From Patescibacteria group bacterium (GTDB lineage Bacteria; Patescibacteriota; Patescibacteriia; JAACEG01): a stretch of DNA of 32,629 nucleotides. Each line of letters starts with the position of its first letter. Position 1 is the stretch's first letter. Positions 5,554 to 32,393 of the stretch are shown here, one piece after another. A program made the position numbers and the translations under genes. The stretch is from NCBI GenBank assembly GCA_034660735.1, contig JAYEJQ010000071.1, forward strand, positions 1 to 32,629. The letters run 5' to 3'. The notes beneath the pieces were generated by a model that saw only the letters and a program-made list of their open reading frames with translations, searched no databases and was not told where the DNA came from.

Positions 5554-7272
<1,719 letters not shown>

Positions 7273-29385: not shown

Positions 29386-29560
29386 AGTAAAAAAAAATGT
29401 GTTATATTAAATAAAATGAATTTGTATTTTTATCTTATCATTTTTTTTATTTTTGGCAAGGGTGTTCATAAAATAAATTAGTACTTCTGTTTTTTTTGTG
29501 CTATTATTTATTTGTAAAGAATATTTTAATTACCTTAACTTTCAGAAAGGAGGTGTAAAA

Positions 29561-30118
29561 ATGTTTAGAAAATTAAATCAAAAAGGTTTTACTCTGATTG
29601 AGTTGTTAGTAGTAATCGCTATTATCGGCATCTTGTCAACTATGGCTGTTGTCGCTTTAACAAGCGCCAACACCAAAGCTCGCGACGCCAAGCGCCAGTC
29701 CGATTTGAAAGTTATGCAAACCGCGATTGAAATGTATGCTACTGATCATGGAAATCCGCCACCACTCTCAACTTGGACCGCATTAGGAACGGCTTTAGCA
29801 AATTATTTGCCTGGCGGACTGCCTGAAGATCCGAGCGGAACACCGCGTGATTGGTGTTATTGTGTTGCTGGTGGCGCATCTCCTACTGGTAAATATTTAA
29901 TCGCAACAAGTTTAGAGCGAAGTCAGGCCGTAGCAAGTGATATAGATTCTAACTCAGCTGCTATTCTTGCCACTTATGGAGCTCTTTATGCAAACTGCGT
30001 ATGTTCTGATGTTGTGGGCGCAGCTAATCCTCCAGCTGCTTTAGATTGTCAAGATTCTGGATCTGGAACAGTTGATAACAATGCTTCTACTACTGCTGTT
30101 TGTTTGGGTTCTGTTTAA
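29561..30118 (+). CDS. type IV pilin / GspG-like major (pseudo)pilin with prepilin leader
   Basis: AAGGAGG (29547-29553) lies 7 nt upstream of ATG 29561. MFRKLNQKG|FTLIELLVVIAIIGILSTMAVVAL is a class III signal. ARDAKRQSDLKVMQTAIEMY is typical of PulG-like pilins. The longer 29498 start in the ORF track is rejected. Confidence 0.9.
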   Translation: MFRKLNQKGFTLIELLVVIAIIGILSTMAVVALTSANTKARDAKRQSDLKVMQTAIEMYATDHGNPPPLSTWTALGTALANYLPGGLPEDPSGTPRDWCYCVAGGASPTGKYLIATSLERSQAVASDIDSNSAAILATYGALYANCVCSDVVGAANPPAALDCQDSGSGTVDNNASTTAVCLGSV

Positions 30119-30210: not shown

Positions 30211-30295
30211 AAAAACATAATAACATTTAAACATAGAAACATAGAAACATTTAAACATTTAAACATAGAAACATTTAAGCATTTAAGCATTTAAC
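30211..30295 (-). repeat. octamer array A1, about 10 units of NNAAACAT, the reverse complement of ATGTTTNN
   Basis: Units in order: AAAAACAT AATAACAT TTAAACAT AGAAACAT AGAAACAT TTAAACAT TTAAACAT AGAAACAT TTAAGCAT TTAAGCAT. A short extra copy lies at 30581-30594. Confidence 0.9.
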
Positions 30296-30310
30296 TGTTA
30301 GATTGCCCAA

Positions 30311-30570
30311 CGTTGTTTACACTTTTTAATTATTTTAATTGTATTTTTTTTAAAAAAGAATGTCATTCTGACCCCGCCGCTCGCGAGCAACAGAGGAAGA
30401 ATCTGCTTTGCTTATAATTAAAATATTATTTAAATAATTGAACAATAAGCATAAGCGATTTTAAAATAATTTAACGATAGTTAAGCCAGATTCTTCACTT
30501 CCGATGGTCGTTCAGAATGACAAATTTTAAAGATAAATAATTTTAAAAAAATTAAAAAGTGTAAACAACG
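30311..30570. repeat. 260-bp nested palindromic element
   Basis: The perfect 20-bp outer inverted repeat is CGTTGTTTACACTTTTTAAT (30311-30330) with its reverse complement at 30551-30570. Inner inverted repeats are TGTCATTCTGA (30361-30371) / TCAGAATGACA (30512-30522) and GAAGAATCTG (30396-30405) / CAGATTCTTC (30487-30496). The element contains copy 3 of the GC hairpin (30372-30396). Confidence 0.8.
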
Positions 30571-30603
30571 CTAGTATGTCTTACATTTAAACATAAAAAT
30601 TGT

Positions 30604-30927
30604 ATGAATGATTTTCAAGAACAATTAAAGAAAAAAATGGATGGATATGCGCATTTGGTTTATAAAATTACTAAAAAATTTCCAAAACATGAAATATATG
30701 GAATCACATCTCAACTAAGAAGATCTGCGTTATCGGTTATTTTAAATTATATTGAAGGTTTTGCCAGACAAAGAAAAAATATACAAATATATTTTTGGGA
30801 AATTTCTTATGGGTCACTAAAAGAATCAAAATATCTTTTACATTTTGCATTGACAGAAAAATATTTTGATAAAAAAAATTATAGAAATGCTATAAAATTA
30901 TCCGAAGAAATAGGCGCTATGATTTGA
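30604..30927 (+). CDS. four-helix-bundle protein (23S rRNA intervening-sequence protein / Avd-like family)
   Basis: LVYKITKKFPKHEIYGITSQLRRSALSVILNYIEGFARQRKN...YGSLKESKYLLHFA matches the family signature (FP..E.YGLTSQLRRAA.SI..NIAEG......F......GSL.E). Confidence 0.85.
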   Translation: MNDFQEQLKKKMDGYAHLVYKITKKFPKHEIYGITSQLRRSALSVILNYIEGFARQRKNIQIYFWEISYGSLKESKYLLHFALTEKYFDKKNYRNAIKLSEEIGAMI

Positions 30928-30958
30928 AGTTTATTAAAATCATTAAAAAATCAAAAAA

Positions 30959-31070
30959 ATGTTTAAATGTTTCTATGTTTAAATGTTTCCATGTTTCCAT
31001 GTTTAAATGTTTAAATGTTTAAATGTTTAAATGTTTCTATGTTTCTATGTTTAAATGTTTCTATGTTTTC
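30959..31070 (+). repeat. octamer array A2, 14 tandem ATGTTTNN units that run into the prepilin peptidase start
   Basis: Units start every 8 nt from 30959: AA CT AA CC CC AA AA AA AA CT CT AA CT TC, given as the last two bases of each unit. Every unit carries an ATG. Confidence 0.92.
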
Positions 31071-31826
31071 ATCCTCGGAGCAATAATCGGCAGTTTTTTA
31101 AATGTTGTCATTTTTCGTCTGCGCGCGAAAAAATCATTTTTAAAAGGTCGCTCATATTGCCCTAAGTGTAAAAAGAAAATAGCATGGTATGACAATATTC
31201 CGATTTTGAGTTTTTTAATTCTGCGCGGAAAATGCCGAAACTGCAAAACGAAAATTTCATTTCAATATCCATTAGTAGAATTATCAACAGGTGTTCTATT
31301 TGTTATAACATTTTTTCATAATTACCAATTACCAATTACCAATTACCAATTACCAATTACTGTTTTTCGCGACTGGTTTTTTGTTTCTGTTTTAATAATA
31401 ATTTTTGTTTATGATTTTAAATATTATTTGATTTTAGATAAAATTACTATTCCAGCGATAATCATAGCTTTCGCTTTAAATTTTTCACTCGGATTTTCTT
31501 TGTCAAATATTTTAATTGGTGCTATAATAGGAGGGAATTTTTTTTTAATTCAATTTTTAATTTCCAAAGGCAGGTGGATAGGGGGAGGGGATATTCGCTT
31601 AGGAATCTTGATGGGTGTTATGCTCGGATGGAAAATGGTTATTTTAGCTATTATGATTGCTTATATTGTCGGAGCGATTTTTAGTATCATTTTATTGGCA
31701 TTTAAAAAAAAAGGATTAAAAAGCCAAATTCCATTAGGAACATTTTTATCAATAGCGACGATGATTGTTATGCTCTATGGAAATGAAATTTTAGAATGGT
31801 ATTTAAAAACTTTAATTGTATATTGA
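31023..31826 (+). CDS. prepilin peptidase (A24 family, PilD-like) with an N-terminal CxxC...CxxC domain
   Basis: GAIIGSFLNVVIFRL, CPKCKKKIAWYDNIPILSFLILRGKCRNCKTKISFQYPLVEL, and later GGGDIRLGILMG containing the second catalytic Asp. The start is ambiguous between 31023 and the in-frame 31047, both inside the repeat array. Confidence 0.88.
   Translation: MFKCFYVSMFKCFYVFILGAIIGSFLNVVIFRLRAKKSFLKGRSYCPKCKKKIAWYDNIPILSFLILRGKCRNCKTKISFQYPLVELSTGVLFVITFFHNYQLPITNYQLPITVFRDWFFVSVLIIIFVYDFKYYLILDKITIPAIIIAFALNFSLGFSLSNILIGAIIGGNFFLIQFLISKGRWIGGGDIRLGILMGVMLGWKMVILAIMIAYIVGAIFSIILLAFKKKGLKSQIPLGTFLSIATMIVMLYGNEILEWYLKTLIVY
31321..31360 (+). repeat. tandem heptamer ATTACCA, about 5.7 copies, inside the prepilin peptidase CDS
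   Basis: ATTACCA occurs five times followed by ATTAC, and is translated as NYQLPITNYQLPIT. Confidence 0.92.
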
Positions 31827-31829
31827 TTT

Positions 31830-31861
31830 GTGTTTTTATGTTTAAGTGTTTAAATGTTTCA
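31830..31861 (+). repeat. octamer array A3, 4 units, containing the start codon of the next pilin gene
   Basis: GTGTTTTT ATGTTTAA GTGTTTAA ATGTTTCA. The last unit supplies ATG 31854. Confidence 0.8.
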
Positions 31862-32393
31862 TATGCTGTTTAAAAACAATAAGGGTTTTAGCGTGGTTGA
31901 ATTGCTTACGGCTATTTCAATTCTTGCCATAATCACATCATTTTCCGTAATTAACTTTAATACATGGAAAAAAAATGAGAACTTAAGGCAAAGCGGACGA
32001 GAATTAGCTAATAATATCCGCAACGCCCAGACAAAAAGCTTGTCAGGAGAAATGTTTAATGGAATTTCGCCGTCCGGATATGGAATTTATTTTTCAAATG
32101 CCAGTTCTTCTTCTTATGTATTATTTGCTGATTTAGACAACGATTTCATCTATGATTCCGCTGACGGTGAATTTGTTGATACTTATAATTTAACTGATAA
32201 TGTTTTAATCTCTAATTTAACCCCGATTTTCGACAACGAACTTACGATCGTTTTTAAATCGCCTAACGCGAAAATTTATATCAATCAAAATATATTAGCC
32301 GACGGCGCGCAAATTGAATTAACTCATAATATTACTGCTAATAATAAAATCATAGAAGTTAGGAGAATTACAGGCAGAATAGATATTCAGTAA
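31854..32393 (+). CDS. minor (pseudo)pilin with prepilin-type N-terminal cleavage/methylation domain (GspH/FimT-like)
   Basis: MFHMLFKNNKG|FSVVELLTAISILAIITS, followed by a REL.N.IRNAQ segment typical of GspH/FimT-type minor pilins. Confidence 0.8.
   Translation: MFHMLFKNNKGFSVVELLTAISILAIITSFSVINFNTWKKNENLRQSGRELANNIRNAQTKSLSGEMFNGISPSGYGIYFSNASSSSYVLFADLDNDFIYDSADGEFVDTYNLTDNVLISNLTPIFDNELTIVFKSPNAKIYINQNILADGAQIELTHNITANNKIIEVRRITGRIDIQ

Follow-up and report, generated by a model that had tools for sequence, protein, structure and literature searches.

A 32,629-nucleotide stretch of DNA from a Patescibacteria group bacterium (hereafter the window) carries a perfect tandem array of a heptanucleotide within its prepilin peptidase gene (pilD), upstream of the codons for both catalytic aspartates, and the protein loop encoded by this array is a site- and period-specific hot spot for such repeats among related bacteria. 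The best-supported reading, which we consider slightly more likely than not, is that the tract is a slippage-active coding microsatellite, located in a permissive, outward-facing loop and kept in frame by purifying selection, such that out-of-frame (OFF) variants arise but stay rare. Type IV pili (T4P) are central to the attachment of Patescibacteria to their hosts, to their movement and probably to DNA uptake, and pilins depend on the prepilin peptidase for their maturation. A tract in pilD that is both hypermutable and frame-breaking would be either a mutational liability that is tolerated at one precise site in reduced genomes or a master switch, and both readings are unusual because non-triplet microsatellites are rare in coding DNA. 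The recurrence of one site and one period with many lineage-specific units, always in frame, makes this more than a curiosity of one locus and poses a question that can be tested at the level of the clade.

A perfect heptanucleotide tract between the two domains of a prepilin peptidase

The array occupies positions 31320-31360 of the plus strand, where Tandem Repeats Finder (TRF) reports a period of 7, 5.9 copies, 100% matches, zero indels and a score of 82. Its raw letters read as five units of AATTACC followed by AATTAC(T); the first-pass annotation had described the same array in another register, as 5.7 copies of ATTACCA within a prepilin peptidase coding sequence. In the frame of the surrounding ORF (31023/31047-31826), the tract encodes NYQLPITNYQLPIT, whose two NYQLPIT copies use the same codons at 13 of 14 positions. 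The two-unit 14-mer AATTACCAATTACC, allowing at most two mismatches, has seven matches in the window compared with 0.63 expected, a number reached by none of 100 dinucleotide-preserving shuffles. An inverted copy of the unit is absent within the window.

Judging from its domains, motifs and named homologues, the ORF is a prepilin peptidase of peptidase family A24A (PilD/PulO type). The called product (P0001; 31047-31826, plus strand) has 259 aa, and a second in-frame ATG is located at 31023, within an octanucleotide array. In the 267-aa ORF, Pfam identifies the A24_N_bact domain (PF06750; E 1.3e-35) at residues 17-99 (31071-31319), comprising TM1, a cytoplasmic four-Cys region (CPKC...CRNC) and TM2 and ending at the base that precedes the tract, as well as the catalytic Peptidase_A24 domain (PF01478; E 7.3e-14) at residues 118-222 (31374-31688). 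The tract corresponds to residues 100-113 and thus lies exactly between the two domains, in the TM2-TM3 loop, in agreement with its initial placement between the N-terminal domain and the catalytic part. In an alignment with 20 homologues, the two CxxC pairs (C38, C41, C63 and C66) are invariant, and so are the catalytic residues D123 of the FVYD motif (31413-31415; numbering of the 259-aa product) and D182 of the GGGD motif (31590-31592), which closes the invariant columns G179-D182. Relatives from Parcubacteria, Falkowbacteria and Patescibacteria are named prepilin peptidase in the databases. In addition, genes for class III signal-peptide substrates flank pilD on both sides, all on the plus strand: a prepilin-type gene with an N_methyl motif (...KGFTLIELL; PF07963, E 1.3e-10) at 29498-30118, whose product is a likely substrate of the peptidase, and a pilin-like gene with an N_methyl motif (PF07963) at 31854-32393, directly 3' of pilD.

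Effect of unit number on the reading frame

Both catalytic Asp codons are located 3' of the tract. In silico, the gain or loss of one or two units leads to products of 113-131 aa that end before the first of them, whereas changes by three units (giving 3, 6 or 9 units) preserve full-length PilD, as had been predicted from the first reading of the sequence. The tract thus has one property expected of a contingency locus: it is a perfect repeat inside an ORF, and the length of its unit is not divisible by three, so that changes in unit number shift the frame. With 5.9 copies, it exceeds the operational cut-off of PhasomeIt, which is at least five copies for units longer than dinucleotides (PMC6321876); among the 160 orthologous loci, the only other tract above this value is that of L095 (5.1 copies). 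Slippage at the tract could in principle switch pilD off.

A heptamer hot spot in the same loop of related peptidases

In orthologues at 54-62% identity, the same loop holds NYQLPIT, NYKLQIT, NYELRIT, NIQYPIS or NFQFSIF units, each of which represents one 7-nt unit read three times. We enumerated every 7-aa product of a thrice-read 7-nt unit (11,260 peptides) and scanned the 120 listed homologues, 50 of which carry such a peptide, nearly always in the segment flanked by the QYP motif (TM2) and the FxYD motif (TM3). Among shuffled control proteins, the frequency was 0.6% (140 of 24,000).

For an analysis at the DNA level, 80 loci were taken from species-representative genomes, ranked on full-length matches and thus biased towards intact genes. 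Perfect heptamer runs of at least three copies occur 22 times in 9.1 kb of loop sequence and 10 times in 418 kb of flanking sequence, which makes the loop about 100-fold denser, and they are absent from the 52 kb that form the remainder of pilD in these loci. For other periods (4 to 12), no run was detected in the loop at any of the 80 loci, and the base autocorrelation of the loop has its maxima at lags of 7, 14, 21 and 28. In an extended set of 160 loci, runs measuring 20 nt or more are found at residues 90-109 (31 cases) and 140-154 (5 cases) and nowhere else in the gene, while the density of imperfect arrays amounts to 1.1-1.5 per kb in the first loop and 0.5 per kb in the second, against a background of about 0.08 per kb. 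The longest perfect runs are those of the window (41 nt), L095 (36 nt) and L093 (33 nt).

The second of these regions, the TM4-TM5 loop (around residues 140-154), contains arrays in more distant Patescibacteria (L090, L094, L095, L098, L101 and L136), with up to 4.9 perfect copies. One of these loci, L101, also has a perfect octamer tract, CAACATTC (3.6 copies), in its first loop. Apparent long loops in the distant homologues L144, L115, L125 and L145 turned out to be artefacts that arose at HSP boundaries; an apparent stop in L159 is the natural terminator. Since neither hot-spot loop contains any Lys or Arg, compared with 15 in the TM1-TM2 segment, the positive-inside rule suggests that both loops probably face outward; a search for a solved structure informative on PilD topology gave no match.

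Unit turnover and probable past slippage

When read in heptamer register, the arrays consist of blocks of like units, with the unit varying by lineage: AATTACC is repeated five times in the window, AATTACG four times in L093 and AATTACA three times in L072, and further uniform units include AATTTCC, AATTTTC, AATATCC, GTTACTG and TTGCGGG. Decayed blocks in a shifted register often border the uniform arrays. At equal site, loop length and register, arrays can differ by one substitution that is repeated in each unit. This pattern points to slippage by single or double units in the past, because a mutation in one of the three sub-positions of a 21-nt block could not reach the other two by steps of three units, and we infer that the uniform new units imply out-of-frame pilD intermediates. 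The window appears to have undergone the same process: its two closest relatives (80-83% identity) possess 9 and 7.7 degenerate units, respectively, compared with its own six perfect ones, so its array was most readily homogenized after the lineages had split. The earlier proposal that the tract is subject to slippage therefore seems sound on an evolutionary timescale, given the uniform, lineage-specific DNA arrays found in a single loop.

A separate comparison concerns L161 and L007, whose catalytic domains are 92% identical at the DNA level, with wholly different loop arrays (AATTTTC-like units and 4.4 copies of GTTACTG, respectively). As judged from this one pair, the contrast shows that the loop either turns over very quickly or undergoes recombination at its array.

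According to genome-wide surveys as they are cited in a single paper (PMC4679880), heptanucleotides are the commonest class of long SSRs in most prokaryotes, with the period-7 bias possibly reflecting polymerase-template engagement, and non-triplet units are unusual in coding DNA.

These data bear on the idea that the tract is a static insert at the protein level, that is, a fixed duplication maintained for a needed 7-residue motif, with slippage being irrelevant. In its favor, the window and several distant orthologues with motifs resembling N-Y-x-L-x-I-T belong to the same loop-length class, which is the most frequent one (QYP to FxYD, 47 residues). However, the NYQLPIT copies are nearly codon-identical, the DNA units are uniform within species and different between them, and the loop is very variable in both sequence and length (57 to 132 nt in the scored segment). 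Moreover, the 7-aa period always coincides with an exact 7-nt period, which is not a product of protein selection. We therefore regard this idea as barely credible. The first-pass annotation had listed a conserved loop insert in distant orthologues as a finding that would speak against a switch; as it turns out, the distant orthologues do share the loop, but what they hold there are heptamer arrays with lineage-specific units rather than a fixed protein insert.

Contigs that break at the array

At four short contigs from four metagenome samples, the homology to pilD stops at the array and unrelated DNA lies beyond (L161, 1-380; L162, 1-165; L163, 1780-1830; L167, 690-720), and two partial proteins at NCBI start or end at contig ends within the loop. 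It is conceivable that the array is a fragile or recombinogenic site whose main outcome is the rearrangement of pilD rather than a change in unit number, as these junctions and truncated proteins would suggest. Yet the junction in L163 also truncates the adjoining glutamate dehydrogenase gene, a typical sign of chimeric assembly at low-complexity k-mers, every long contig has an intact pilD gene, and the window is free of the inverted copy of the unit, making a fragile site a highly improbable explanation. Based on L163, we favor assembly chimeras as the source of the junction contigs, which may alternatively represent rearrangements or graph tangles caused by heterogeneity in tract length. 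Two further candidates were examined and dismissed. An inversion in L161, suggested by a 36-nt reverse match to L007, is contradicted by the absence of the remaining inverted segment that it would entail; what the two loci share is a palindromic hairpin. Likewise, the junction contigs gave no Rfam match that would indicate an intron or mobile RNA.

Other arrays and elements near pilD and in its flanks

The start of pilD in the window is overlapped by an octanucleotide array, NNATGTTT (14 copies, 86% matches by TRF; 30957-31068, plus strand), which gives the first ~7 codons of the gene. This array does not act as a frame switch, since the number of units upstream of the last in-frame ATG has no effect on that codon. 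Comparison with the sister species identifies it as the last part of an insertion of ~830 bp (30213-31068), located exactly at the start of pilD. This insertion begins with nine copies of the octamer AAACATNN in minus orientation (30213-30294), continues with a near-perfect hairpin of ~300 nt (30295-30600; -85 kcal/mol, z -9.6) and a gene for a four-helix-bundle protein similar to 23S_rRNA_IVP/bAvd (30604-30927), and ends with the 14-copy array, in which the octamer of the first part recurs in plus orientation and now provides the pilD start codon. The insertion is possibly a mobile cassette whose inverted ends are formed by the arrays. IVP-like genes related to that of the insertion adjoin pilD in L027 and L077, and TRF detects a short remnant of the octamer array at 31838-31859, ahead of the downstream pilin-like gene.

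Heptamers also occur outside pilD. Perfect tracts are present in the leader-peptide coding regions of prepilin genes beside pilD in L016 (3962-3995; 4.9 copies of AAACTAC; MSLGKLQTTNYKLQTNQG followed by GFSMIEML) and L132 (3905-3933; 4.1 copies of AAATTTC; ...NFKFQISNFRDG followed by FTLIELL). Leader-coding regions and 5' flanks are the classical positions of phase-variable SSRs. The only coding heptamer found in a flanking gene unrelated to pili is a perfect, in-frame tract of 4.3 copies of AAGAAAC in L079 (6259-6288); to judge by the sequence, it probably falls in the linker ahead of the BRCT-like C-terminal region of a putative DNA ligase of 681 aa. Elsewhere in the window, 4.6 perfect copies of ATTCTTA (5554-5585) end 7 nt before the ATG of a chaperonin gene (Cpn60/GroEL; 5593), reminiscent of the start-codon-proximal heptamer repeats of Beggiatoaceae and cyanobacteria (PMC4679880).

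Arrays at such positions raise the possibility that heptamers are recognized by a regulator that binds DNA or RNA, with the coding tract acting as a regulatory element within the mRNA. Consistent with this notion, heptamer or octamer arrays are found just 5' of start codons, both ahead of groEL in the window and ahead of pilD in L137 and L005, and they resemble the intergenic TAACTGA pattern, for which a role as post-transcriptional sites has been proposed (PMC4679880). A single sequence-specific factor is, however, incompatible with units that vary not only between species but also within one genome (AATTACC, ATTCTTA and AAATGTTT in the window). Within coding sequence, moreover, the arrays are restricted to two loops of a single gene. 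Regulatory sites thus strike us as a very unlikely explanation of the pilD tract.

Search for OFF alleles and tract-length variants

All 154 other two-domain orthologues that we inspected are in frame, with no OFF allele among them. They comprise the 80 species-representative loci, which favor intact genes and without exception encode both domains in a single frame, and 74 loci from a frame-blind survey in which metagenome contigs were queried with the N-terminal domain alone. In this survey, 74 of 80 loci had enough downstream sequence, and at every one of these 74 the catalytic domain continues in frame, with the power of the result limited by the fact that only about 12 of them carry at least three perfect copies in either loop. 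Assemblies, moreover, show the majority allele only. When proteins were searched with the first 91 residues of PilD as the query, all matches were short products, and there was no tract-terminated N-terminal fragment among 120 of them, and no variants in tract length were seen in ten clusters at 90% identity with ~35 full-length members. The five contigs of the sister species are 99.9-100% identical and clonal, so they are uninformative on length variation, and the window's own species is represented only once, giving the comparison low power at this point. The suggestion that slippage at the tract toggles the whole pilus apparatus thus finds no comparative support in these in-frame orthologues, short products and clusters.

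Several candidates initially resembled OFF alleles. L164, which looks like part of a long-read assembly, contains two homopolymer frameshifts that are probably sequencing errors. In L165 (96-880) and L166 (22-806), pilD is split into one ORF for the N-terminal and one for the catalytic domain, with an overlapping ATGA stop/start; the cause is not a change in unit number but a shared 1-nt deletion in TM3, 10 codons past the tract. This split is common to two diverged strains from two samples and represents a gene fission that has become stable or else a pseudogene that has been kept. L163 and L167, finally, join the N-terminal half and the array to unrelated DNA and are not unit-number frameshifts either.

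The most probable alternative is adaptive phase variation, in which the tract would be maintained by second-order selection because it pays off to lose PilD, and with it all type IV pilins, in a stochastic and reversible manner, possibly through escape from pilus-specific phages or detachment from the host cell. Several observations are in line with this view. The unit is not a multiple of three nucleotides, lies inside the ORF and 5' of both catalytic residues, and is present in more perfect copies than the PhasomeIt cut-off demands. One site has been maintained for a long time, with a turnover of units that needs single-unit slippage, and pilD is far more decorated with arrays than its neighboring genes. 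Since a frame-breaking load should favor interrupted, stabilized alleles, the persistence of the arrays at a single site in many lineages, with next to none in the neighboring genes, is poorly accounted for by tolerance and hints at selection for mutability. Heptamers in the leader-coding regions of prepilin genes (L016 and L132) and directly upstream of pilD (L005 and L137) fit this picture, and the contigs breaking at the tract could reflect population heterogeneity in its length. Finally, the poly-C tract of pilC sets a precedent for T4P expression as a target of such variation (PMC7157529). Against these points stand the uniformly in-frame orthologues, the missing tract-terminated fragments and intra-cluster length polymorphisms, and the shortness of the orthologous tracts, which have 5.1 copies at most. 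A proven switch, neuO, looks very different, with 3-53 units and OFF alleles in 65.6% of 64 genomes (PMC13001214). In addition, T4P genes (T4P-1) were reported to be essential in TM7x and Southlakia, two cultivated models of Patescibacteria, although these belong to the Saccharibacteria and thus to another lineage than the window (PMC12206443). An OFF state of pilD would therefore be costly and may even be lethal. On balance, adaptive phase variation appears possible, but rather doubtful.

A bolder version would make the pilD heptamer an ancient, clade-wide contingency locus, a master stochastic switch for T4P, attachment and DNA uptake, whose OFF minority stays hidden from assemblies. Episymbiotic Patescibacteria are usually described as CRISPR-poor, and such a switch, if real, would provide them with a means of bet-hedging against pilus-dependent phages or of detaching from their hosts. 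We consider a locus of this kind unlikely.

Our preferred reading, a slippage-active microsatellite under purifying selection, would accommodate the same observations as follows. The TM2-TM3 loop of PilD, which is probably outward-facing, may tolerate insertions, and in a large group of Patescibacteria (Parcubacteria/Falkowbacteria-like) this loop, and less often the TM4-TM5 loop, appears to be made of 7-nt arrays. Slipped-strand mispairing would expand, contract and homogenize these arrays over evolutionary time. As a change by one or two units is predicted to destroy PilD, and cells probably need their pilus machinery, purifying selection would hold in frame the majority genotype, which is the one seen in assemblies. 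OFF variants are nevertheless bound to arise, at a rate that rises with tract length and should hence be highest in the window, and would remain in the minority or be lost.

Comparison with known repeat systems

Three systems come closest to the pilD tract: neuO of E. coli K1, pglE of Neisseria and the intragenic heptamer repeats of Haemophilus. In neuO, the O-acetyltransferase gene of prophage CUS-3, the AAGACTC repeat has a mode of about 20 units (PMC13001214). In both neuO and pilD, a 7-nt unit lies within the coding sequence, a full-length product results only at multiples of three, and three units specify a 7-residue repeat (PMC13001214). However, the neuO tract is located at the 5' end of its gene, whereas that of pilD lies ~35% into the coding sequence. 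The wide range of neuO units and the majority of OFF genomes contrast with the 5.9 units of the window and the consistently in-frame orthologues. Furthermore, neuO encodes an accessory modifier and pilD a core maturation enzyme. Similar considerations apply to Neisseria, where SSR frameshifts govern the glycosylation or expression of T4P through a heptanucleotide in pglE and poly-C tracts in pilC1 and pilC2 (PMC7157529). In these cases, switching has been measured and isolates are mixed for ON and OFF states, and the affected product is a modifier or an assembly factor rather than the shared prepilin peptidase.

In Haemophilus influenzae, heptanucleotide SSRs likewise lie in or beside genes for surface structures, with 13-38 copies of TGAAAGA in the promoters of hmw1A and hmw2A, 14 intragenic copies of AATTTTG in hmw1A and 8-13 copies of AACAACC in HI1369, some of the intragenic tracts having frameshifted alleles (PMC2651432). 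Their copy numbers are far higher and differ between strains, and alleles with frameshifts are on record; pilD showed none of these features. The TAACTGA repeats of Beggiatoaceae, cyanobacteria and Bacteroidetes comprise 2-6 copies directly 5' of start codons and show indels in 7-nt steps between strains (PMC4679880). They thereby resemble the array before groEL in the window and the arrays preceding pilD in L005 and L137, but use one unit genome-wide and are almost all intergenic, whereas the units of pilD are locus- and lineage-specific and its arrays coding.

At the protein level, the window's product matches the PilD/PulO enzymes (MEROPS A24A) in its domain architecture, its four-Cys motif and its two catalytic Asp residues. 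In literature searches on phase variation, SSRs and T4P in Patescibacteria/CPR and on prepilin peptidases, we found neither a repeat tract nor phase variation reported for a prepilin peptidase, nor any case in the phylum. Slipped-strand mispairing at non-triplet coding repeats is a well-known process, whereas its presumed target in this case, the prepilin peptidase gene, the phylum concerned and the clade-wide conservation of both site and period in the face of unit turnover appear to be new.
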